A stretch of 64,000 nt of DNA from Eledone cirrhosa (taxonomy: Eukaryota), in contig CAXHJY010000210.1 of NCBI GenBank assembly GCA_964016885.1, positions 1 through 64,000 on the forward strand, written 5' to 3'. Shown here one piece after another: positions 3,899 through 50,776 of the stretch. A program made the translations under genes and the position numbers. A model generated the notes under the pieces. The model was not told the DNA's origin. It saw nothing but the letters and a program-made list of their open reading frames with translations, and searched no databases. Every line of letters begins with the position of its first letter. Position 1 is the first letter of the stretch.

Positions 3899-6110
3899 AT
3901 GATTTAGAGACGTATGACATAGATAATAACTGGAAGTTCTTACGTGACAACTTGCTGAAGGCTACTGATGAAACCTGTGGCTGGAGCAGAGCTCCAACCA
4001 GACAGTGACCTGGTGGTGGAACAGCAGTGTAGATAAGGCTATTAGAGACAAAAGACTAGCATGGAAGGCTTGGAATAAGGGTGGGAGTAGGGAAGAATAT
4101 ACAGACACTAAGAGAGAAGCTAGACGTCAGGTGTACTTAGCACGCAGGAGGCAGAGTGTAGGAGGTTTGCCAATGTTCTGCGACGGGAAGATCAGAGGCG
4201 TGCGGTGTTCCACATTGCAAAGGCAGTGTGTCAATGCAAATCAGATGTTGTTGGTGATAAATGTGTCCGGGATGATGCCGGTGTACTTAGTGTCACGAAT
4301 GACCAGAAAAAAAAAAAAAGAAAAAAGGAGGCCTGGAAATGTCATTATGAGAGACTGATGAATGTGGAGAACGAATGGGAGAGAGAGAAATTACCCTTGG
4401 TAGATCCGACAGAGGGACCAGCTATTGAGATTGACGAATATAGGGTCCAAGAGGCGATTAGGGAAATGAAAAATGGTAAGGCGGCCGGACCATCGGGAAT
4501 AGTTGCTGAGATGCTGAAGGCATCAGGGGACGTAGGCACTAAACTGGTTGCACGCATCATCAATCAGACTATACATGGTGGTGTCATACCCAAAGACTGG
4601 TGCAGCAGTATTCTCATAAATTACTACAAAGGTAAAGGGGATGCTTTGGAGGAGCAATTATAGGGGTATAAAACTGATAGATCAGGTTATGAAAGTGGCA
4701 GAAAGGATTTTAGCACAACTAATTAGAGAAAGGGTCAAACTAGATGAGATGCAGTTTGGTTTTGTGCCTGGGAAGAGTACAACAGATGCCCTCTTCTTGG
4801 TGAGACAAATGCAAGAGAGGTTCTTAGAGAAGAATAAGCCACTATACTTAGCCTTTGTTGACCTAGAGAAGGCCTTTGATAGGGTACCCCGATCTGTCAT
4901 CTGGTGGTCCCTAAGGAAGCTGGGTGTTGAGGAATGGCTTGTAAGGACAGTGCAAACTTTGTACAGAGGTACTCTCAGTAAAGTCAGGGTAGGAATGGAG
5001 TTTAGTGAGGAATTCCAGATACAAGTAGGAGTACATCAGGGTTCGATCCTCAGCCCGCTCTTGTTCATTATAGTCCTCCAAGCCATAACAGAGGAGTTTA
5101 AGACTGGCTGTCCATGGAACTTCTCTATGCTGACGATCTGGCTCTTATAGCAGAATCAGTAGAGGAGCTAGGGAATAAATTCCGGCTATGGAAACAGCAG
5201 TTGGAAGCAAGAGGACTGAGAGTAAATCTAGCTAAGACAAAAGTGTTGACGAGTAGAAAAGAGGACAAAACCCTGATTCCGTCAGGGAAATGGCCATGTT
5301 CGATATGCAGAAAAGGAACTGGCATAAATTCTATAAGATGCACACAATGTAGGTCCTGGGTACACAAGAGATGTAGCGGGATAGCAGGCAAACTAACAGG
5401 TAGGGAGAAATATGTATGCAGTAGATGTACAGGGAAATTAGACAGTAGAAGTCGCACTGATAGATACATTTTTCAAATGCGAGAGGGCGCTATAGAAGTG
5501 GTGGATAGTTTCCGGTACCTAGGAGATCAGATTAGCATGGGAGGAGGGTGTTCCGAGGCCATAGTATCTAGAATAAGGACGGGTTGGAAGAAGTTTAGGG
5601 AGCTGCTTCTGCTGATGAAGAAGGGTTTCTCCCTGCGTATGAAAGGCCGGTTATATGATGCCTATGTGAGGAGCGCGATGCTGCATGGTAGTGAGACATG
5701 GGCAGCTACCGCAGAAGATATGCGACGGCTGGAGAGAAATGAGGCAAGCATGCTCCGTTGGATGTGCAGTGTAAATGTGCGTGAACGACCCAGCATAAAT
5801 GTGTTGAGAGAGAAACTGTGTCTGAGAGGGATAGAATGTAGTGTACGGGAGAGGAGACTGAGGTGGTATGGACATGTGATGCGCATGGAGGATGACCGAT
5901 GGGTGAAGAAGTGCCAGGAAATGCCAGTTGAAGGAAGACGTGGTAGAGGTAGACCACGAAAAACATGGGCGGAGGTGGTGAGAACAGACCTCAGATCATT
6001 GAAGCTCACGGTGGAGATGACGAGGGACCGTGACGAGTGGAGAGATGCTGTGCTGAATAAGACCCGTCCCACCCTTGCAAGCAGGGAAAAGCGGACGTAA
6101 AATGATGATG
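3899..6110 (+). mobile_element. RTE LINE family A, 5'-truncated and frameshifted, (ATG)n tail
   Basis: ORF pieces 4205-4663, 4641-5150 and 5114-6100 with [35 protein letters not shown]. Confidence 0.93.
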
Positions 6111-7562
<1,452 letters not shown>

Positions 7563-7614
7563 ATAAAATAAAGTTAAATATAAGTCAAATGATTAAAATT
7601 TAGCTTCGTTTATT

Positions 7615-7669
7615 ACTGCTATATATATTTCAGTGACAGCCATCTTTGGCTGTGACCTCTTCAGGCAGT
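7615..7669 (-). ncRNA. Minimal type I hammerhead ribozyme motif
   Basis: Reverse complement of 7894-7948. Confidence 0.75.
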
Positions 7670-7893
7670 TTGAATTAGTATGGTATAGACAAGTACATAT
7701 GTTGTTTAGGTGTATGATATTGTCAATACTCTGAAATGCCCAGTTCCTTGTTCGGTTGTTAATTCACTGGGGAACTCTGATATGACTCCAGTTCCCCTGT
7801 GAATTAACCCAACAAGGAACTGGGCATATCAGAGTATTGACAATATTATACACCTAAACAACATATGTACTTGTCTATACCATGCTAATTCAA

Positions 7894-7948
7894 ACTGCCT
7901 GAAGAGGTCACAGCCAAAGATGGCTGTCACTGAAATATATATAGCAGT
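7894..7948 (+). ncRNA. Minimal type I hammerhead ribozyme motif
   Basis: ACTGC-CTGAAGA-GGTCACAGCCA(AAGA)TGGCTGTCACT-GAAA-TATATA-TA-GCAGT: stem I, core, stem II, palindromic stem III, UH site. Confidence 0.8.
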
Positions 7949-8092
7949 AATAAACGAAGCTAAGTTTTAATCATTTGACTTTTATTTCACTTTATTTTAC
8001 ACTACTCCGGAGTAACCAAACCAACCTGCGCACTTCGTCGAGTGCTCCAGCCTGCATACTGAGGGTTGGTATACAACCAACATAAACTCAAA

Positions 8093-9366: not shown

Positions 9367-9440
9367 ATACATATACATATATATATACATATACATATAT
9401 ATATACATATACACATATATAATATATATATATATATACA
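8093..9440. repeat. (TA)n array with TCTAC/TAAT then TACA variant units
   Basis: Direct reading. Confidence 0.97.
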
Positions 9441-10970
9441 TTTCGACCGCGGACGGCTAACATAACCCCATCGCCCCCCGCCCCCCACCGCCCCCAACCC
9501 CCAAACGCAATCCAAAACTTCAGAGTTGGTACCATAAATGTAGGCACCCTAAAGGGTCGCGCTAACGAGGTTGTAGAAATGCTTGAACGTAAGGAGGTCG
9601 ATGTTTGTTGTATTCAAGAGACCAGGTGGAGGGGTGGGTCTGCTAGGTTCATTGAGGGTAAAAAACGATGTTATAAGCTTTTCTGGGTGGGAAACGACGA
9701 TGGGCTGGGTGGAGTAGGAATCATGGTAGCAGAAAAGTGGGCAGATAAGATAATAGACGTAAATAGAGTGAACGACAGAATAATTAAAATACGACTTGTC
9801 CTCAATAGAACTACGGTGACAGTAATATCTGCGTACGCACCCCAATCGGGACTGCCCGGCACTATAAAAGACAGATTCTATGAGACACTGATGCTAACTA
9901 CCTCCCAAATATCCGACAGTGACTATATAATTATCGCAGGCGACCTAAATGGTCACGTTGGACAACATTGTGACGGCTACGACGAAATCCATGGAGGCTA
10001 TGGGTTTGGTACTAGAAATGAGGAAGGCTCCAGAATCCTGGAATTCTGTGATGCAAATAACCTAACTATCTGTAACACTAACTTCAAAAAACGTGACAAT
10101 CACCTGATCACCTATAGATCCAGGGAACACACAAGCCAGGTAGATTATATCCTTACCAGAAGACGTGACAGAGTGTCTGTTGTAAACACTAAATCCCTCC
10201 CCCATGAAGAATGCACCTCCCAACATAGACTGATAATTAGCGACCTCATAGTCAGGACGAGACGTACTCGACAACAGAAGAGGACTATCCTCAGGAGGAA
10301 AATATGGAAGCTAAAGGACCCCACAGCCAGGAATAAATTTCAAAGCATATTACTTGATGCTTTCGACAGTAAGGAAGAACATTTAGAGTCGGACAATATA
10401 GAGGGAGAGTGGGAATTTCTGAAAGCAAACCTGCTGTTGGCGACAGACGAAGTCTGTGGCTGGAGCAGGCCTGTAGGCAGGAGGAGAGTAACATGGTGGT
10501 GGAACAGTAAGGTGGAGGGGTCAATTAAGGCCAAAAAGCAGGCTTGGAAAGTATGGCGGGATGGGGGAAGTAGAGAGGACTATCAAGTGGCCAGGATGGA
10601 AGCTAGGAGACAAGTGTACTTAGCAAGAAGGGAAGCTGAGGAAAGAAAGTTCAAGCATGTTCTACAACGCGATGACCAAAAACGTGAGGTGTTCAGGATT
10701 GCTAGGCAATGCGTCAAGGAAAACCGTGATATTGTCGGGGAGAAGTGTGTACTAAACGACGATGGCACATTTGCCATCACCGACGCTGATAAGAAGGTAG
10801 CTTGGAAGTGTCACTATGAAAGGCTACTAAATGAGGAGAATAATTGGGAGAAAGGCAGTCTCCCCCATATCGACCCAATAGAGGGACCAGCAGTGTTACT
10901 CGAGGGGAGTATAATAAGTAAGGCAATCAAGGATATGAAGACGGGTAAGGCGGCTGGCCTTCGGAAATAG
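9441..10970 (+). pseudogene. RTE ORF N-terminal half: AP endonuclease and linker
   Basis: Frame of the 9579 ORF is open back to 9441 ([15 protein letters not shown]); broken at GKAAG/PSGI by a frameshift. Confidence 0.88.
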
Positions 10971-10978
10971 TTGCTGAG

Positions 10979-12553
10979 ATGCTGAAGGCATCTGGCACGG
11001 TGGGACACACCATGGTCACCCGCATAGTTAACCAAGTCGTACAGAATGGGGTTGTTCCGAAGGACTGGCATAGCAGCATCATCGTTAACTGTTATAAGGG
11101 TAAAGGAGACGCCCTAGATAGGAGTAACTATAGAGGCATTAAATTAATCGACCAGGTCATGAAGGTCACGGAAAAAGTAATAGCGCAACTAATCAGAGAG
11201 AGAATTGACCTAGATGAAATGCAGTTCGGGTTTGTGTCAGGCAAAAGTACCACAGACGCTCTTTTCATAGTACGACAACTACAGGAGAAGTACCTAGCTA
11301 AAGGTAAACCCCTCTACTTAGCTTTTGTCGACTTGGAGAAAGCCTTCGACAGAGTCCCCCGCTCCATTATCTGGTGGGCTCTTAGAAAACTAGGCGTTGA
11401 CGAATGGCTTGTGAGGGCTATACAAGCCATGTATAAAGAAACAGTCAGCAAGGTTAGAATTAACAACGAATATAGTGAAGAGTTTAGCGTAAAAGTTGGC
11501 GTCCATCAGGGCTCTGTTCTCAGCCCACTACTATTTATTATTGCCCTTCAGGCTATAACAGAGGAGTTCAAGACAGGCTGCACATGGGAACTCCTATACG
11601 CAGACGACCTGACACTCATAGCGGAATCAATGGCCGAGCTAGAGAAGAAATTCCAAACATGGAAGCACGGCCTAGAGTCAAAAGGACTTAAAATTAACCT
11701 GGCTAAGACCAAAGTACTAGTTTGTAGGAAAGAAAACAAAGCGGCGGTCCCTTCTGGGAAATGGTCGTGCTCGGTGTGTAGGAAAGGCGTAGGTAGAAAC
11801 TCCATTTTATGTCCTAAATGCAAAGTATGGGTGCATAAAAGATGTAGTGGGATCACAGGTAAGCTAACTAAGAACATAGATTTTACATGTGGCCGGTGCT
11901 CTGGTGCAATAAGTAGCAGCAAGTGCCCACAAACTACTAGCTCTTTCAATTGCGCAGAGGGTTCTATAGAAATAGTGGACAGCTTCCGTTACCTGGGCGA
12001 TAAAATCAGCAGTGGGGGAGGGTGCTCTGAAAGTACTGTAGCTAGAGTCAGAACTGGTTGGAAAAAGTTCAGAGAGCTTATACCACTATTAGCTGCTAAA
12101 GGGTTCTCACTAAAAATGAAAGGCAGGTTGTACGATGCCTGCATACGAACATCAATGCTGCATGGCAGTGAGACCTGGGCATTGTGTGCAGAGGATATAC
12201 GCAGACTAGAGAGGAACGAAGCTTGCATGCTCCGCTGGATGTGTAACAGTAATATACGTGAACGGCAAAGCATAAACGAACTAAGGAAAACATTAGAGAT
12301 AAGAGGGATCAGATGTTGTTTACTCGAGAGAAGGCTACGTTGGTATGGACACGTGATGCGCATGAAAGTCGATAGCTGTATAACAAAGTGCAGGGCAATA
12401 AAGATAGACGGTAGTCACGGAATAGGCAGACCTAGAAAAACCTGGGACGAGCTGATAAACTCCGACATCACACACTTACACCTCTCCAAGACAATGTCAC
12501 TGGACCGAGACCTTTGGCGGTACTCAGTAACAGAGAAGACCCGCCTTACCTAA
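10979..12553 (+). pseudogene. RTE ORF C-terminal half: reverse transcriptase with PHD-like insertion
   Basis: [34 protein letters not shown]4HC3 cluster, [13 protein letters not shown]. Confidence 0.9.
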
Positions 12554-12942
12554 ATATATAGTAAAACCTACTCCAGCCAGTAGGCATCTCTAACAAAAGA
12601 CACCCCGTCCCACCACCACCACCCGATCCACACCACCCCGTTCTATGTAAAGTTATGTTGGTGCCGCGCCATCGAGGCCGAAACAAATGAGATCGTGTAG
12701 GTGTCACGACAAAAAAACACAGTCCACGCTGTAATGTGGCCGTGTAGGCAACACGGTAAAAACCTCCCAGACCCACACTGTAAATGTGGTTGGTGTTAGG
12801 AAGGGCATCCAACTGTAGAAAACCTGCCAGACAGTCCTATGCGAGCAAGACAATCACTCTTGCCTCAAGTGGGACTACCCCCGTCCAAACCCATGCAAGC
12901 GTGGAACACGGACGTTAAACGTTGATGATGATGATGATGATG

Positions 12943-14155: not shown

Positions 14156-14284
14156 GGAAAGTTATATTTAAATTGTTGGGTTACAACTAGTAAATATTTA
14201 TAACTGATATAAAAGCACTCAACAAGTATTTGGAGTATATTTACGATATTAAATAAATGGAAACTATATTTATAAAACCATATT

Positions 14285-14350
14285 TATTTCATTATATATA
14301 TTTCAGGGATATCATATTAACAATATGTTATGCCTTCCTCAGACAAAATA
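14285..14350 (-). ncRNA. Minimal hammerhead ribozyme motif in pLTR
   Basis: TATTTTGT-CTGAGGA-AGG..CCT-GAAA-TATATA-TA-ATGAAATA on minus strand. Confidence 0.72.
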
Positions 14351-15648
14351 CAATATAGACAGTTTTATAGATAAATAGATTTGACATACCGTTCAACATC
14401 GACTTGTATTTGAGAAAGTTGATTTGGCAGTGAAAAATTGTAAACAGAAAGAAAGAAAGAGAGAAAGAAGGAAAGAAAGAAAGAAAATGAAGAAAAAGAA
14501 GAAATGCATGTAACAAAATAGAGAGATGGAAAGATAGATAAAGAGAAGAACTTCATGTAAAGAAACAGAGAGAGATATATATAGAGAGGAAATAGATAGA
14601 GATAGACATATATAGAGAAAAGTAGGTAGTTGGAACGTATCAATGATACATTTATTTATTTATTTATTTATTTAGCTCTAGTATTAATGTAAGGGAGATA
14701 TATGTGGTTAGGGAAGAACCCAGCCGTTATATAGAGAGAAAAATGAAAAGTAACCAGACATAGGCGAGGCATAATTTGAAAACCCTATGTTTTAATGTAG
14801 AAGTATTAGTACGTATAAAAACCAGGCGCTATAATGTAAATATCAGTATTCCTGAATGAGACACGTATCCATAATGTGTGAAAAGTAATGATCTTATGTT
14901 TAGTTTTAAAAATTCATATGTTTATATGATAACTACAAACATCGATGTGAATTTACGTGATCAATTCTGCAGATCTCTATTTCACACGGAGAACATTCTC
15001 ATTGTGCTATAAAAATTTAAGTATACATATATGTGTATATATATACACATATATATAGAGTCTATATTAATTTTAACAATACTATTCTTGTCTTTACTCT
15101 ACATGATTATCTATCAAGCAGAAATAGAGAACAGATTTCAATATATTAATAAAAAAATATCAGAAACAAAAACAAAAAATAATAATGATAATAATAATAA
15201 TAATAAATAATAATAAAATAGAAAACTAAAAACTAAAAAATATTACAAAAAAATATTACATATTAAAAATAAAAATATTAGAAAATATTACAATAAAAAA
15301 TAAACCACAAAGATCAACCCTTCAAAATTAATTGACAATATATTGCCAAGTTCATTATAAGCATCAGAGTCGAAAAACAGATAAAGCTAAAAATTATTTA
15401 TCAAATCGCATCTAGCAAAAATCATTTCAAAAAGTTTAGGATGCCCATTTGGTCTACATGTGTTCTTATATTTAATATAGAAGTTTATGTAGTGTAACGT
15501 TTATTCGAAATATTTGGAGCATCAACTTTTAGGGTAGTTTAATTTTTCATGAAGAATGTTTAAATAAAAATAAAAATAAGAATAAAAAGAAGAAATCGAA
15601 AGATTTATCGGCTAGTTTCCCAAATAATTATAAAACAAACTAAATATA

Positions 15649-16110
15649 CTACATTTTAAATTTAAATTTATATTTAAAAGTTGAGTTTAATCTATGTTTG
15701 CAGCAACTGAATAAATTTGTCCGTAGATTAAGGGAATTTTTAGATTTTAGTATAAAGAATATCTCCTCTGCGCAGAGGTCACATGTCTCAAAGGATGAAT
15801 TAAAAGGAATCCCTCTTGAGACTATATTCCAAGCCGTCGAATATCTAACGTTATCTAGCTTAAGTTGCCAGAGTACGCCTGATAGTGCTGTTGAAGATTT
15901 TTTGCTTGGATCTGTGAAAGAATTCTTGTGGTTATTATAGCGAAGTTTAAATTCCGTCAATGTGGAACCGACGTAGTTAAAAGAATTAGAGTCAGTTTTA
16001 ACATTACAATTGTATATTATATTTTTAACTAAGCAGTTGTTATTTAACGGACATTTAGATCTATCTCTACAGTTACATTTGTTAACTTGTATATTATTTA
16101 TGCTATTATC
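15649..16110 (-). pseudogene. PLE C-terminal GIY-YIG endonuclease fragment
   Basis: [44 protein letters not shown]. Confidence 0.88.
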
Positions 16111-16374
16111 ACTTTTCTCTATATATGTCTATCTCTATTTCCTCTCTCTCTATATATATCTCTCTCTGTTTCTTTACATGAAGTTCTTCTCTTTATCTAT
16201 CTTTCCATCTCTCTATTTTGTTACATGCATTTCTTCATTTTCTTTCTTTCTTTCCTTCTTTCTCTCTTTCTTTCTTTCTGTTTACAATTTTTCACTGCCA
16301 AATCAACTTTCTCAAATACAAGTCGATGTTGAACGGTATGTCAAATCTATTTATCTATAAAACTGTCTATATTG

Positions 16375-16440
16375 TATTTTGTCTGAGGAAGGCATAACAT
16401 ATTGTTAATATGATATCCCTGAAATATATATAATGAAATA
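16375..16440 (+). ncRNA. Minimal hammerhead ribozyme motif in inverted pLTR
   Basis: CTGAGGA at 16383, GAAA at 16421, TATATA loop, TA site 16431-16432. Confidence 0.72.
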
Positions 16441-16607
16441 AATATGGTTTTATAAATATAGTTTCCATTTATTTAATATCGTATATATACATATATATAT
16501 ATATACATATATATATATACATATATATATACATATATATATATATATACATATATATATATGTATATGTATATATATATGTATATATATATATACATAT
16601 ATATATA

Positions 16608-18489: not shown

Positions 18490-18651
18490 GGTAAATATAC
18501 ACGGGTGTGTATGATTGTGTATAGAAGATTATATTAATAAGAGGAATTCCAACTTTGTCTGATTTACTCGTTTTATTTACAATCCTTTAAAATATATATA
18601 ATGGTATTATAATGAAATAGTATGATAGAATATTAAATTCTCAGTGTTAAT

Positions 18652-18690
18652 TGAACAAGTACTTTTATGCTTTCGCAATCTTCAGATTCA
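18652..18690 (-). ncRNA. Degenerate minimal hammerhead motif
   Basis: TGAAT-CTGAAGA-TTGC(GAAA)GCAT-AAAA-GTAC-TT-GTTCA; core GAAA reads AAAA. Confidence 0.55.
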
Positions 18691-19056
18691 TGATATGTGG
18701 TGACAGTCGTGTTTGCAATTTTCAACTGTAATGAGATGGGTAAATTTCCTACCTTTTATACATTTTATACAGAGAAAAGTGGCTCCAGAATGCAAAGTCC
18801 TGTAAACTGTATTTCGACCAATCAGTGTGTTGTTTCACTGAATTACTACAGCTGATTGGTTTAAGCGAAACGGCTGGTTGAGCATGCTAAAGACCAATAG
18901 TCATACCCAATTGTTTTGCTTTTTGAAATGATGAAAATAGCATTTTCTATTAATCATCACCATCAACATCACTTTTATTATTATTATTATTGTTGTTGTT
19001 GTTGTTGTTAGTGGTCGTGGTCATAGTGGTAGTAAAAGTAATACCCTTAGGCGTTA

Positions 19057-37481: not shown

Positions 37482-37912
37482 TACTAGTTTCAAGCTTATT
37501 AGCTATCGTCAGCAACGTATACCTTGATGCCAGATATGCAAATTGGGCTACTCAGCCGTTAATATGCAGAAGGTACGTATATACGTTCAACAATCTGGCA
37601 GGAAAGCATACGTTGCTGACGATAGCTAATAAGCTTGAAACTAGTAAAGCGTTCCTTTGTCAGTGTTGAACAAACGAGCAACGATGGCTGCTGGACACTA
37701 CGGCTTAATACGGGATGTTTGTTTACAAACACACAGAGCATTATAATAAATGTTCGGTGAATCCATACGTACATATATGTATATGTGTGCATGTATGTAT
37801 ACATACTACTGTACGTCTGTATACATATATGTATGTACGTGTACATACTTATATTTAAGTAACCGCCGTACTAAGAGTGGGAAATGAAATTTCGTTTCAT
37901 TTTTTTTTGTTT
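37482..37912 (+). mobile_element. About 430-bp non-coding HHR fold-back mini-element, copy 1
   Basis: Perfect inverted repeat 37482-37520 / 37608-37646 made of the HHR; 3' hairpin AAATGAAAT-TTC-GTTTCATTT; second copy at 46207. Confidence 0.8.
37610..37652 (+). ncRNA. Minimal hammerhead ribozyme motif
   Basis: ACGTTG-CTGACGA-TAGCT(AATA)AGCTT-GAAA-CTAG-TA-AAGCGT. Confidence 0.72.
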
Positions 37913-38210
37913 ATATATATATATATAAATATATATATATACATATATATGTATACATATATATATACATGTATACAATACATGTATACATATATATATA
38001 TATATGTATACATATATATATATATGTATATATATGTATATATATATACATATATATATATACAAGGATTAGAATACTGGAGCGTGTTTGAGTCAAACAC
38101 CCTCTTCGTATTATAGAAATGACAGTAAAAGGTATAGCTCAATGTAGTTAAACAGAGCCAAAAAATTAGGAGAGTAAAACAAAGAATCCTTTAATACATC
38201 AAAAGTTTTT

Positions 38211-38255
38211 ATTAGCCGACAATGTTTTGTCCTATTAAGGACTCATCAGGGCAAT
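38211..38255 (-). ncRNA. Hammerhead motif with GAAA to AAAA change
   Basis: ATTGCC-CTGATGA-GTCCT(TAAT)AGGAC-AAAA-CATTG-TC-GGCTAAT. Confidence 0.68.
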
Positions 38256-39226
38256 CAAAACAACAAGAGGTAATTTCGGCAGATACAAGCCAGAAACTCC
38301 GAAGAATATTATATATAACATTATGATATTTAAACTTTATATATCATGTAAGATGTCTGGATTTTTTAATATTGTAATATGTAACATTATGATATTTAGA
38401 CTTTACATATCATGTTAGATGTCTGTATATTTTTTTCTGTAACATCATATTTTTTTTGTAACATCATAATTGTTCCCTGTACCAATATAGTTTTTTTGAG
38501 TATTATTGTATTATATTATATGATTTATATTTCCTCATTTATTATGTAACCCAGTATGAATCATTTTGTACATATTGTTTATGGTAATTGTTAATATGTT
38601 AACATTTTATCATTGTATTTCACTGTGACATCTATATTGTTTCTGTAAATTAACCGGGGATTATCTATTCTACTTTATTATATTGTATTGAATTATATAA
38701 TTTTGTTGTTTATTATTTGTTGTAAGTGTTTCTTGTAATTATATCATATTATTGCCTCATGTATATTGGGTAGATGTATTAGTATTATTTTCACTATTAC
38801 CATGCTTATTTTTAATATTCAAACTTCTAATAGGGCTTAATTTCTGTGTAATAGAAAATAGATATGTGTATTGTAATATGTGTGTGTGTGTGCACATATA
38901 TACATGTATATATTGTACCTTTTGATTTTTAATTTGGAACTTTAATGTTGGTATAAATATATTAATATTATAATGTATTATATTGTGTTATATATAATTC
39001 CTGCTCTATATAACCAAATTTGTTTAGATTTAAGTTGGTGGCTTTGGACTATATTTATAATATGGTTCTTAACGTTATCTACATCCTTAGTTATTATAAT
39101 TTTATTATTTTTATCTTTATTTTCATTTTTATTATCGTATATCTTTGCAAGAGATTAGTGTATGTACACTCCATATTCTTCGGAGTTTCTGGCTTGTATC
39201 TGCCGAAATTACCTCTTGTTGCTTTG

Positions 39227-39271
39227 ATTGACCTGATGAGTCCTTAATAGGACAAAACATTGTCGGCTAAT
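39227..39271 (+). ncRNA. Hammerhead motif with GAAA to AAAA change
   Basis: ATTGAC-CTGATGA-GTCCT(TAAT)AGGAC-AAAA-CATTG-TC-GGCTAAT. Confidence 0.65.
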
Positions 39272-39327
39272 AAAAACTTTTGATGTATTAAAGGATTCTT
39301 TGTTTTACTCTCTTAATATATATATAC

Positions 39328-39792: not shown

Positions 39793-40366
39793 GGTGGCTG
39801 CCAACTCGTTTTCGAGTACGGCCACTACTCTATATCCATGTAGGAGAACCCCTACCGATGCGCTGAACGAGTGTGACTTTTTAGTCCAGCCAGCGACTTG
39901 AAAACTCTGGTACAAACACTACACTTGTGACAATTATTGACACATAGTGCTGGGCCCATGGTACCATGTTACGACAAGTGCAGAGAGATCTCCAGATATA
40001 AAGCAATGCCTGTGCCGTGAAGCTTTTATAGTGAGCAAAGGCACTGCACAAAGCCAGTCCCACTCTCTTAACCAAGATGATATTTACCAAAAAGAAGAAC
40101 AAGTCAACATCATTGGATACCATCAGGGTTGCAGGTGTTATATCAGAGTTTTCCTTCTCCTAGAATTCTGCCTTGACAAAGGCTAAGGGGTCATCTCTCC
40201 CGGTGATTTTGGATGGCCATTGACTCTTAAGTGCTCCTTTGCCCTTTGACAGGTTTTGTTTTTAGCCCTGCAGGATGTCCAAAGTCACCCTCCTCACCAA
40301 GAAACCTTGGTGGGGTTGCCAGTTTAGTCGCCAACGACCCGACCATGAGACAGGTTGTACTGGGAT
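39793..40366 (-). mobile_element. Non-coding interspersed element with RTE-5'UTR-like head, copy 1
   Basis: Second copy 48338-48893 shares one end exactly; GGCGACTAA and CTAGGAGAAGGAAAACTCTGA motifs recalled from RTE 5' UTRs. Confidence 0.65.
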
Positions 40367-40730: not shown

Positions 40731-42663
40731 ATCATCATCATCATCATCATCATCAGGTTTAGCGTCCGTGTTCCACGCTTGCATGGGTTTGGACGGGGGT
40801 TTTCCCACTTGAGGCAAGAGTGGTTGTCTTGCTCGCATAGGACTGTCTGGCGGGTTTTCTACAGTTGGATGCCCTTCCTAACACCAACCACATTTACAGT
40901 GTGGGGCTGGGAGGTTTTTACCGTGTTGCCTACACGGCCACATTACAGCGTGGACTGTCTGGCGGGTTTTCTACAGCTGGATGCCCTTCCTAACACCAAC
41001 CACATTTACAGTGTGGGGCTGGGAGGTTTTTACCGTGTTGCCTACACGGCCACATTTACAGCGTGGACTGTGTGTTTTTTGTCGTGACACCTACACGATC
41101 TCATTTGTTTCGGCCTGGATGTTGTGGGACCAACATAACTTTACATTGAAAGGGGCGGTGTGGGTGGGGTGGAGGGTGGTGGGACGGGGGTGTGTTTTGA
41201 TAGAGATGCCTACTGACTGTAGTAGGTTTTTACTTTGTATTTAGGTAAGGCGGGTCTTCTCTATTACTGAGTACCGCCAAAGGTCTCGGTCCAGTGACAT
41301 TGTCTTGGAGAGGTGTAAGCGTGTGAGGTCGGAATTTATCAGCTCGTCCCATGTTTTTCTGGGTCTGCCTACTCCGTGGCTACCATCTATCTTTATTGCC
41401 CTGCACTTTGTTATACAGCTGTCGTCTTTCATGCGCATCACGTGACCGTACCAACGTAGCCTTCTCTCGAGTAAACAACATCTGATCCCTCTTATTTCTA
41501 ATTTTTTCCTTAGTTCGTTTATGCTTTGCCGTTCACGTATATTACTATTGCACATCCAGCGGAGCATGCAAGCTTCGTTCCTCTCTAGTCTGCGTATATC
41601 CTCTGCACACAATGCCCAGGTCTCACTGCCATGCAGCATTGCTGTTCGTATGCAGGCATCGTATAACCTGCCTTTCATTTTTAGGGAGAACCCTCTAGCG
41701 GCTAATAGTGGTATAAGCTCTCTGAACTTTTTCCATCCAGTTCTGACTCTAGCTACTGTACTTTCAGAGCACCCTCCCCCACTGCTGATTTTGTCACCCA
41801 GATAACGGAAGCTGTCCACTATTTCTATAGAACCCTCTGCGCAGTTGAAGGAGCTAGTATTTTGTGGGCACTTGCTGCTACTTATTGCACCAGAGCACCG
41901 GCCACATGTAAAATCTATGTTCTTAGTTAGCTTACCTGTGATCCCACTACATCTTTTATGCACCCATACTTTGCATTTGGGACATAAAATGGAGTTTCTA
42001 CCTACGCCTTTCCTACACACTGAGCATGGCCATTTCCCCGATGGGACCGCCGCCTTATTTTCTTTCCTACAAACTAGAACTTTAGTCTTAGCCAGGTTAA
42101 TTTTAAGGCCTTTTGATTCTAGGCCGTGCTTCCACGTTTGGAATTTCTTCTCTAGTTCGGTCATTGATTCAGCTATGAGCGTTAGATCATCTGCGTATAG
42201 GAGTTCCCATGGGCAGCCGGTCTTGAACTCCTCTGTTATAGCCTGAAGGGCAATAATAAATAGTAGGGGGCTAAGAACAGAGCCCTGATGGACACCAACT
42301 TTTACGCTAAACTCTTCACTATATTCGTTGTTAATTCTAACCTTACTGACTGTTTCTTTATACATGGCTTGTATAGCTCTCACAAGCCATTCGTCAACAC
42401 CTAGTTTTCTAAGAGACCACCAGATAATGGAACGGGGGACTCTGCCGAAGGCTTTCCCCAAGTCGACGAAAGCTAAGTATAGGGGTTTACTTTTAGCTAG
42501 GTACTTCTCCTGTAGTTGTCGTACAATGAAAAGAGCGCCTGTGGTACTTTTGCCTGACACAAACCCGAACTGCATTTCATCTAGATCAATTCTCTCTCTG
42601 ATTAGTTGCGCTATTACTTTTTCCGTGACCTTCATGACCTGGTCGATTAATTTAATGCCTCTA
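40731..42663 (-). mobile_element. RTE family B, 5'-truncated, uninterrupted RT frame 41241-42663, tandem duplication in 3' UTR
   Basis: Highly similar to 11131-12942; (CAT)n on + strand at 40731-40754. Confidence 0.95.
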
Positions 42664-46206: not shown

Positions 46207-46638
46207 TACTAGTTTCAAGCTTATTAGCTATCGTCAGCAACGTATACCTTGATGCCAGATATGCAAATTGGGCTACTCAGCCGTTAATATGCATAAGGGT
46301 ACGTATATACGTTCAACAATCTGGCAGAAAAGCATACGTTGCTGACGATAGCTAATAAGCTTGAAACTAGTAAAGCGTTCCTTTGTCAGTGTTGAACAAA
46401 CGAGCAACGATGGCTGCTGGACACTACGTGTTAATACGGGATGTTTGTTTACAAACACACCGAGCATTATAATAAATGTTCGGTGAATCCATACGTACAT
46501 ATATATATATGTGTGCAATGTATGTATACATACTACTGTACGTCTGCATACATATATGTATGTACGTGTACATACTTATATTTAAGTAACAGCCGTACTA
46601 AGAGTGAGAAATGAAATTTCGTTTCATTTTTTTACATT
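46207..46638 (+). mobile_element. HHR fold-back mini-element, copy 2 (HHR at 46336-46378 on +, inverted arm 46207-46245)
   Basis: Colinear and highly similar to 37482-37912. Confidence 0.8.
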
Positions 46639-47721: not shown

Positions 47722-48179
47722 GATATAAAAGACGCAATAAATATAAAAGAATTACAACCAAAATTAAATAGAAAACATTAGTGGAACAGCAACATCACCA
47801 CTTACAATTAAGGACAAAATGAAAACACACACACATAGAACAAACAACCAACCAGTAACATGTAAATAAACAAATAAATAAACGAATATAAACACACACA
47901 GACACCCGGATGTGGCGCATGCGCAGACTGAGCACACAACACACAGAAATAAGATGGCGTAGGACAGAACAAAGGAGAGGCACAAAAACAAAGAAAATAA
48001 TCTGAAGAGGTCACAGAATGTGTGACGAAAGAACTTTGACAATATATAAACAACCATCTGGTCGTGGAACCAACCAACCAACCGGAAATTTATAAATTCC
48101 TAAATTTATAAATTTATTATAATAAATTGAAGAACTGGTGCGTGTATTTCTTATTGGCAACATGACCCTCCCAAAGTAT

Positions 48180-48337: not shown

Positions 48338-48892
48338 GGTGGCTGCCAACTCGTTTTCGAGTACGGCCACTACTTTATATCCATGTAGGAGAACCCCTAC
48401 CGATGCGCTAAACAAGTGTGACTTTTAGTCCAGCCAGCGACTTGAAAACTCTGGTACAAACACTACACCTGTGACAATTATTGACACAGTGTTGGGGCCT
48501 TGGTACCATGTGACGACAAGTGTAGAGAGATCTCCAGATACAAAGCAATGCCTGTGCCGTGAAGCTTTTATAGTGAGCAAAGGCACTGCACAAAGCCAGT
48601 CCCACTCTCTTAACCCGAGTTGATATTTACCAAAAAGAAGAATAAGTCAACATCATCGGATACCATCAGGGTTGCAGGTGTTATATCAGAGTTTTCCTTC
48701 TCCTAGAATTCTGCCTTGACAAAGGCTAAGGGGTCATCTCTCCCGGTGATTTTGGATGGCCATTGACTCTTAAGAGCTCCTTTGCCCTTTGACAGGTTTT
48801 GTTTTTAGTCCTGCAGGATGTCCAAAGTCACCCTCCTCACCAAGAATCCTTGGTGGGGTTGCCAGTTTAGTCGCCAACAACCCGACCATGGG

Positions 48893-49022: not shown

Positions 49023-50776
49023 GGAAAGTTATATTTAAATTGTTGGGTTACAACTAGTAAATATTTATAACTGATATAAAAGCACTCGACAAGTATTTGG
49101 AGTATATTTACGATATTAAATAAATGGAAACTATATTTATAAAACCATATTTATTTCATTATATATATTTCAGGGATATCATATTAACAATATGCTATGC
49201 CTTCCTCAGACAAAATACAATATAAACAGTTTTTATAGATAAATAGATTTGACATACCGTACAACATCGACTTGTATTTGAAAAGTTGAATTGGCAGTGA
49301 AAAAATTGTACACAGAGAGAAAGAAAGAGAGAAAAAGGAAAGAAAGACAGAAAACGAAGAAAGAGAAGAAAAAGAAGAAATGCATGGAACAAAATAGAGA
49401 GATGGAAAGATAGATAAAGAAAAGAACTTCATGTAAAGAAACAGAGAGAGATATATATATATAGAGAGAGGAAATAGAGATAGATATATATATATAGAAA
49501 ACTAGGTAGTGGGAACATCCGTTGAGTAAACGTATCAATGATACATTTATTTATTTATTTATTTAGCTCTAGTATTAATGTAAGGGAGATATATGTGGTT
49601 AGGAGAGAAACCAGCTGTTATATAGAGAGAAAAATTAAAAATAACCAGACATAGGCGAGGCATAAAAACCCTATGTTTTAATGTAGAGGTATTAGTATGT
49701 ATAAAAACCAGCCACTTTTAATATAATATGCATATTATATTATCGGCTAGGAAAACTTTGATAGAATTTAATGACCAACTATGGACCAGAGCAGATAGAG
49801 ATAGCAATTTTGACATTACTATGGGATCATCCGACTCAGCTCAGGTAACTGACCTTGTGGGCTTATTTTTAATCAATTCGCTACATAGGAAAATACCTGG
49901 TACTACCGGAGGTTTATATAGAGATGACATGCTTTTACTTATTGATAATAATAACTCTGAACTAAATAGAAAATGTAAACAAATTACACAATTTTTTAAT
50001 TACTTTAATCTTAAAATAGAAATTGAGAACAACCATAGAATAGTCAATTTCCTAGATATAACATTAAATCTCAACACATGTCTTCACTATCCTTTTCACA
50101 AGTTGAATGAAAACTTAAACTATGTCAACTTTAACTCTAACCACCCCAGATCTGTCAAAAACACTATAGTAAACTCTGTTCAAAAACGTATCTCTAGGAT
50201 CTCGTCGAATAGAAAGATTTTCGACGAAAAAGCCAATACTACAATGAAGCATTAGCTAGAGCAGGATATACTGATAAGATTATGTACATAGATAATGATA
50301 GACAAACTAAACAAAATAACAACTATTTTAATTACGGCAACAACCTTAACAACTATAATAGAAAGCATTACAATAATTCCAAAGGCAAAAAAGAAATAGA
50401 ACTAGGAACATAATTTGGTTTGCCCCCCCTTTCTCACTAAACATTAAAACCCACATCGCTAAACTATTTTTAAAGCTCTTGATAATCGCTTCCCTAGAAC
50501 ACATAGGTATCACTCAATTTTCAATAGACATACTATAAAATTAACCTACTCATCCACCAAAAATTTAGCACAAAATATTAATAGAATAAATAATAGGAAC
50601 TTAAAACCTAGTGATAATAGCATAAATAATATACAAGTTAACAAATGTAACTGTAGAGATAGATCTAAATGTCCGTTAAATAACAACTGCTTAGTTAAAA
50701 ATATAGTATACAATTGTAATGTTAAGAACTGACTAATTCTTTTAACTACGTCGGTTCCACATCGACGGAATTTAAA
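49023..50776. mobile_element. PLE of the 14156 family: 3' end on minus (49023 to about 49715) joined to an inverted RT-EN segment on plus
   Basis: 49023-49711 matches 14156-14825; HHR 49152-49217 (-); 50611-50776 is the reverse complement of 15947-16113. Confidence 0.88.
49728..50776 (+). pseudogene. PLE reverse transcriptase to GIY-YIG start, frameshifted
   Basis: [49 protein letters not shown]. Confidence 0.88.

Follow-up and report, generated by a model that had tools for sequence, protein, structure and literature searches.

A hammerhead-bearing fold-back element in a (TA)n microsatellite of Eledone cirrhosa as a likely duplicated fragment of a Penelope-like insertion

A 430-bp non-coding element that carries a hammerhead ribozyme motif within a fold-back is most likely an ordinary fragment of a Penelope-like element (PLE), left by one event that was probably duplicated afterwards. 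It occupies positions 37482-37911 (plus strand) of the 64,000 nucleotides of Eledone cirrhosa DNA analyzed here (hereafter the window; contig CAXHJY010000210.1, assembly GCA_964016885.1), and a second copy is found at 46207-46638 on the same strand. The origin to which most weight is given, tentatively and at a little under an even chance, is a dead, 5'-truncated, head-to-head insertion of a PLE terminal repeat in a (TA)n tract; its left end would have been produced by annealing of the target TA to a UA of the RNA template, and the insertion was probably copied afterwards at the DNA level. PLE hammerheads, inverted truncated arms and (TA)n targeting were all known previously.

Anatomy of the element and its hammerhead motif

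The element is located between TA-type microsatellites, and (TA)n-type tracts flank both sides of the two copies, the adjoining microsatellite measuring 1.5-3 kb. The GC content is at most 41% and the longest frame, 103 codons from stop to stop, has no Pfam match. The first-pass annotation of this DNA described a non-coding unit with a hammerhead in a 39-bp inverted repeat, and both the perfect repeat and a type I motif are present. The left arm (37482-37520, minus strand) extends from the 5' strand of helix I to the UH, stops at the predicted cut and matches 37608-37646 over 39 bp with 0 mismatches, the arms being 87 nt apart. The repeat runs 15 bp further with 4 mismatches (37521-37535, minus strand, against 37593-37607) and then gives way to a 57-nt spacer (37536-37592) that contains the inversion point. 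The exact point of inversion is not fixed; the candidate head-to-head junction is a perfect 12-bp palindrome (37575-37586) that occurs elsewhere in the window only at 46301, in copy 2. When the adjacent segment 37540-37574 was compared with the downstream region, 109/500 and 185/500 shuffles scored as well in the two orientations. Both outer ends are sense 3' ends facing outward, i.e., a head-to-head arrangement, and the predicted fold of the element has a z of -12.8 on the plus and -13.8 on the minus strand, with 0/100 equally stable shuffles on each.

The inverted repeat had been called terminal and equated with the hammerhead itself, descriptions that hold in part. The left arm is the only one at an element terminus; the right arm lies inside the element, with 265 nt between it and the right end. 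Both arms are confined to the ribozyme sequence that precedes the cut, and the 3' strand of helix I follows the plus arm only. The 265 nt downstream of the cut (37647-37911, plus strand) are non-coding, and over their last ~100 nt they share homology with the end of a distantly related element at 54473-54703 (plus strand; 0/1000 shuffles as good) that has neither hammerhead nor fold-back. A terminal stem-loop followed by a T-run (37881-37911, plus strand) is conserved between them, which identifies the right end as the regular end of the family.

The complete sense motif, a type I hammerhead of the PLE kind with a long helix I, spans 37585-37672 on the plus strand, and cleavage is predicted after 37646. 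The core lies at 37616-37622, the GAAA at 37637-37640 and the UH, here UA, at 37645-37646, which together give the CUGANGA...GAAA...UH arrangement. Helix I of the plus arm is formed by 37585-37615 and 37647-37672 (duplex -24.4 kcal/mol, 2/300 shuffles as good) and closes across the cut, with a G.A adjoining the core. Helix II has 4 bp and a 4-nt loop, and helix III consists of 1 bp with a palindromic CUAG loop (A-CUAG-U; self-duplex -4.8 kcal/mol). In the minus-strand arm the 3' strand of helix I is absent. A hammerhead descriptor found 9 motifs in the window, 4 of them in the two copies, and 0 when the 30.6 kb outside the microsatellites was shuffled 100 times. A local Rfam search at E <= 10 returned no hammerhead family and three miRNA-hairpin matches below gathering scores; over the whole window, matches between microsatellite and miRNA models dominated the Rfam output, and the repeat finder was likewise overwhelmed. 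The exact motif had 0 occurrences in metagenome contigs and 0 in viral contigs, collections that are not expected to include this host. Among sequencing runs compared by 44 sequence words, no RNA run was listed; four runs of a single study matched 0.20-0.50 of the words and may represent the source sample, and the small shares in 16 other organisms (0.07-0.18) carry no weight as evidence.

PLE type I hammerheads share with this motif the conserved core, a helix III of one base pair closed by a palindromic loop and a likely dependence on dimers, and those with a small palindromic helix III are thought to act as dimers; close pairs of motifs on opposite strands were also noted among them, minimal hammerheads 100-700 bp apart on opposite strands being known in Schistosoma (PMC4209133). 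The present motif differs in the 4-bp helix II, the base of which is a U.U pair and not G10.1-C11.1, in a helix I of ~20 bp with bulges, and in matching no Rfam family. A U.U at this position is known from the axolotl motif HHR_Amex2, where it accompanies weak cleavage of the monomer.

Read on the minus strand, the left arm passes into (TA)n directly after the predicted cut (after 37482), as the first-pass annotation had noticed, within an ambiguity of 2 nt. The placement of the end exactly at the cut has to be relaxed: the last TA belongs to the arm and to the flanking repeat alike, so that three placements of the junction, including the cut itself, fit the sequence.

The second copy and the predicted effect of the fold-back

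The copies are 8.7 kb apart and ~97% identical, with 12-13 substitutions and 2 single-base indels. Inversion, palindrome and left end are identical in both, in agreement with the earlier claim that the copy at 46207 has the same end, and the right ends coincide within a few bases. Since all junctions are held in common, the copies count as one event. The left junction was formed once, whether or not the copies are a duplication.

A later duplication of DNA is the likely source of the second copy, short of proof. Over their first 50 nt, the right flanks pick each other as best match in the window (edit distances 1 and 2, the runners-up being at 2 and 3), and a rare 37-nt variant of the repeat is confined to the upstream sides of the copies, with three occurrences ahead of copy 1 and one ahead of copy 2. 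The match between right flanks is not unique at 70 and 90 nt, and the left flank of copy 2 does not select copy 1. In a block-level k-mer test, the left flanks of the copies rank 21-30 of 300 pairs and their right flanks have no private k-mer in common, whereas the two sides of an insertion at 48339 rank 1. The caveat of the first-pass annotation that both copies may descend from one duplication thus agrees with the identical junctions, the 50-nt right flanks and the 37-nt variant, but the block-level test of the flanks does not single the pair out.

The insertion at 48339 belongs to a pair of ~550-bp repeats (39799-40362 and 48339-48892) that are 96% identical and have nearly the same ends; we presume that they are an internally deleted non-autonomous element of RTE type. 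The segments 39799-40347 and 48344-48890 (offset 8545) were considered as proof of a segmental duplication and set aside, their flanks being different and their ends possibly fixed.

The antisense arm had been proposed to sequester the sense hammerhead, and structure prediction agrees. In the plus transcript that includes the left arm, the probability of being unpaired is at most 0.0005 over the core; the fold reaches -106.1 kcal/mol as opposed to -66.9 kcal/mol with the core held open, a cost of 39 kcal/mol. Without the left arm, 4/7 core positions are predicted to be open (0.93-0.97) and 3 mostly paired. In the minus transcript the complement of the arm comes before the arm itself, and the duplex of the arm with its own flank amounts to -7.7 vs. 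-13.9 kcal/mol. The fold-back is therefore predicted to keep the ribozyme core paired in transcripts of both strands, and an element inactive on both strands would have no evident route to regenerate its left end.

Insertion of Penelope-like type and the neighboring elements

The PLE-type origin put forward in the first-pass annotation is supported by the terminal hammerhead, the (TA)n target, the head-to-head inversion and the similarly built PLE fragments nearby. Endonuclease-positive (EN+) PLEs regularly show inverted 5'-truncated copies of the pLTR, tails on one side and insertion into (TA)n (PMC8557442); the tail is optional and of 30-40 bp (PMC8557442, PMC3846280), and palindromes are common at the inverted junction of head-to-head copies (PMC3846280). 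The element resembles such truncated inverted-pLTR copies in its terminal hammerhead, its head-to-head arm, a palindrome at the candidate inversion point, the greater length of one end and the (TA)n target (PMC8557442, PMC3846280). It departs from them in a one-sided extension of 265-266 nt vs. 30-40 bp and in a short end that falls on the predicted cut.

No ORF and no parent pLTR of the element were found in the window, nor was the autonomous PLE with the same pLTR that had been anticipated, the search having been made within these 64 kb. Comparison with the PLE fragments of the window gave no significant match, the spacer and hammerhead region scoring within the range of shuffles; the best score of the downstream part in the window was 39, to an RTE element, with shuffles reaching 34. 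Since no parent pLTR is found in the window, membership among the PLEs rests on anatomy and not on homology.

The preferred origin would proceed as follows. A PLE RT-endonuclease would cut the (TA)n tract and prime from both target ends. The first cDNA would start at the usual end of the family, the stem-loop and T-run ending at 37911, and run for ~325 nt; the second would start upstream at the UA and run for 55-95 nt. The UA would be selected by annealing of the target TA to the RNA template, and it happens to be the predicted hammerhead cut as well. A head-to-head fusion of the two cDNAs close to the 12-bp palindrome would follow, and the insertion would later be duplicated as DNA.

Four other insertions that combine an inverted arm with a longer end on the opposite side (7566-8090, 14159-16482, 24435-27482 and 38067-39317) serve as internal controls; 38067-39317 lacks a hammerhead, and neither it nor 7566-8090 has a tested ORF. 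The homology of their inverted arms to the TA tract at the end is 2, 3 and 2 nt, and 8/9 nt near 16482. A TA at the junction is thus the rule in the window, with 5/5 inverted arms, including the 2 nt of copy 1, ending on a TA/AT match to the repeat, in line with the earlier caveat that TA microhomology alone could give such a junction. Past the TA, the flank of the arm and the template agree at 2/10 nt, and at 1-3 in the other arms. The position of the arm is less usual: ~80-102 nt separate the four neighboring arms from the long end, as against 265-266 nt for the arm of copy 1, which indicates that the latter did not begin at the customary second start. The stretch from the core to the right end contains 38 TA sites, of which the cut is one, and an end guided by TA would accordingly fall on the cut ~3% of the time.

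Two of the other insertions have canonical hammerheads, and their inverted arms end 58 and ~52 nt past the cut (0/2 at the cut), their long ends lying 152 and 138 nt past it. In the family that includes 14159-16482, 49026-50776 and 59169-59223, the long end is the same in 3/3 insertions and the secondary ends differ (~16482 and 50776), the one at 50776 lying deep in the ORF, inside the endonuclease region.

The fragments 25727-26728 and 49722-50255 have no Pfam match; they match ESM Atlas clusters with HTH_animal, GIY-YIG or RVT_1 (scores 0.93-0.97, 11-69% of members), and their translations show a CxCX5C linker followed by a GIY-YIG-like motif. According to PMC8557442, this linker is that of the Hydra clade of PLEs, nearly all families of which insert into (TA)n. 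The CxCX5C fragments, including the family of 14159-16482, may thus be Hydra-clade-like, a motif-level lead.

Several features of these neighbors are worth recording in their own right. The insertion at 7566-8090 is a near-complete palindrome (arms of ~215 bp, 7566-7997, 93% identical) with a hammerhead motif in each arm and a 93-nt one-sided tail, and represents another head-to-head PLE-type insertion without an ORF. The 24435-27482 element is a piece of a PLE whose inverted repeats measure 800 bp and are 98.6% identical; they include a possible variant hammerhead core with an initial U, the two arms reading UUGAGAA and UUGAGUA, together with a long helix II. A further hammerhead-like motif, with a non-palindromic helix III, is located at 47994 in a 450-bp insertion (47729-48175) devoid of an inverted arm. 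The one-sided tails of the elements at 7566, 14159, 24435 and 38067 (~80-102 nt) exceed the 30-40 bp reported for PLEs.

Alternative origins of the left end and of the unit

Ribozyme cleavage is the strongest competitor for the origin of the left end, a possibility that we rate as real but clearly below TA-guided annealing. The left cDNA of the same single PLE insertion, later duplicated, would have been primed on the free 3' end of hammerhead-cut RNA, the terminal UA of which paired with the nicked (TA)n; the cut would probably have been made by a dimer formed through the palindromic helix III. A fuller version, held at the same tentative level, is that a PLE RT dimer copied two RNAs, a cut and an uncut one, joined by the palindromic helix III, and that the left junction is a fossil of priming from the cut end. 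The junction lies within 2 nt of the predicted cut, 1/38 TA sites, and well away from the 80-102 nt by which the four other arms fall short. Helix I is long and intact and helix III self-pairing, and the arms differ at 4/15 positions beside their perfect part, as two template molecules might; these differences preserve helix I no better than random changes do (29/81 and 493/2835 as good), and a compensatory change in the left arm was rejected as not significant.

A ribozyme-defined 3' end has been proposed for the telomeric Terminons, and in Terminons and Athena the 3' end of the element likewise adjoins a hammerhead and matches the repeat to which it attaches (PMC6431247). Those elements are endonuclease-minus, telomeric, giant and coding and are attached to telomeric repeats, whereas the present one has a 2-nt TA match in an interstitial microsatellite; the reverse-complement telomeric repeats and telomeric position of Terminons are absent here, the arm being followed by (TA)n.

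Against priming from a cut end stand the single event on record, the 0/2 other canonical hammerhead arms that end at the cut and the TA match at the end of every inverted arm in the window (5/5). The U.U at the base of helix II, associated with weak monomer cleavage in the axolotl motif, points the same way. In vitro, the one PLE tested (PAc) did not need cleavage (PMC11167929): the cut lies at +26 but reverse transcription begins 111-118 bp inside the ORF, mutants of the ribozyme core are inserted as usual, and none of the RNA-seq reads had its end at the cut. A likelihood ratio of up to ~38 for cleavage over a random TA, combined with a prior, set by judgement, that 1-2% of secondary ends derive from cut RNA, leads to roughly 30-40%.

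If cut-end priming is true, PLE hammerheads would act in vivo in an endonuclease-positive element and would make a priming end matched to the target; their in vivo role is described as unknown in PMC7761336 and PMC8557442. PLE-type insertions in (TA)n are abundant in this genome, and insertion ends piling up at the cut would be direct genomic evidence of cutting in vivo and of the supply of a priming end. No report of endonuclease-positive PLE insertions ending at the cut was found in the part of the literature searched, which comprised main texts; the supplements of bioRxiv 10.64898/2026.07.22.740005 and PMC11167929 may bear on end positions.

The first-pass annotation saw a mobile, non-autonomous, retrozyme-like fold-back unit moved whole by a PLE RT, with self-cleavage defining one end. 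This proposal is not sustained and is considered improbable. The two copies do have the same ends and are ~3% apart, and shared flanks between them are not proven; the unit, at 430 bp, low in GC and non-coding, is within the 150-450 bp range of retrozymes and has the short helix II of canonical type I motifs (PMC4209133). Non-LTR retrozymes are also non-coding, of low GC and equipped with a type I hammerhead, a PLE origin has been proposed for them and solo monomers exist (PMC7229834 and bioRxiv 10.64898/2026.07.22.740005). They form tandem arrays, of at least two same-strand type I hammerheads head to tail, whereas each copy here has one sense ribozyme and a second that is antisense and incomplete, and is separated from the other copy by unrelated elements. 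The left end, antisense on the plus strand, cannot cut; on the minus strand the arm has no helix I partner and is preceded by its own complement, and the fold-back would block cleavage. Part of the flank evidence, moreover, favors duplication of a single insertion with all junctions in common.

Another way to reach the present end, unlikely in our estimation and marginally more so than a retrozyme-like unit, is that the left arm was once longer, ended at the usual offset and, ahead of the duplication, was trimmed to the TA by a deletion between arm and (TA)n. In its favor are the TA match at the end, the TA-rich sequence that an arm of greater length would have brought beside 1.5-3 kb of microsatellite, and the microhomology deletions known in PLE copies (PMC3846280). 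Against it, the palindrome at 7566-7997, whose arms measure ~215 bp, persists at 93% identity in the same surroundings, and a deletion that fell on the cut would again be chance.

The least probable of the readings considered is a non-autonomous Helitron-like (HLE2/HINE) element with a hammerhead fold-back, copied by rolling-circle DNA transposition: transposition as a unit would explain the identical ends, the right end has the stem-loop and T-run, and the relative at 54473-54703 has a subTIR-like inverted repeat of 11 bp, but copies 1 and 2 have no such repeat beyond 5 bp (862 and 887/1000 shuffles as long), below the 11-17 bp of subTIRs, and the minus strand ends in CTAG, which is the loop of ribozyme helix III, with no 5' TC. 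The 3' stem-loop, T-rich end, inner microsatellite-like tract and 5' fold-back recall HINE/DINE-1 elements as described in PMC4067079 and PMC11417382, from which the element differs in having no subTIR pair in either copy and a gap of 87 nt vs. 3-22 bp between the perfect fold-back arms. An HLE1 element (Helitron; 5' TC, 3' hairpin-CTRR between A and T) was rejected, the CTAG at the minus-strand end having no TC at the other end.

The relative at 54473-54703 is itself HINE-like: its first bases form the 11-bp inverted repeat with 54622, ~70 nt from the end (0/1000 shuffles), it has a terminal stem-loop, and a 10-mer is common to it and to copies 1 and 2 and found nowhere else in the window. 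The idea that it starts at the ribozyme cut was dropped, as there was one weak register and 14-544/1000 shuffles were as good over 12 settings.

The window as a whole contains ~30 kb of TA-type microsatellite interrupted by transposon islands, in which Pfam detects RT in five long frames, some with an apurinic endonuclease; this landscape may be typical of cephalopod genomes. LINE copies lie at 9423-12936, 3949-6100, 40739-42661 and 62787-64000, and a PHD-finger match follows the RT frames at 5102, 10949 and 41241. A PLE-like endonuclease fragment on the minus strand (18494-19536) has a CX4CxxC linker, unlike the two CxCX5C families. The interruptions of the microsatellite are strongly one-stranded over the 64 kb (C 2293 vs. 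G 273 on the plus strand, 155 tracts), a bias that could be due to replication direction or to an effect of the assembly.
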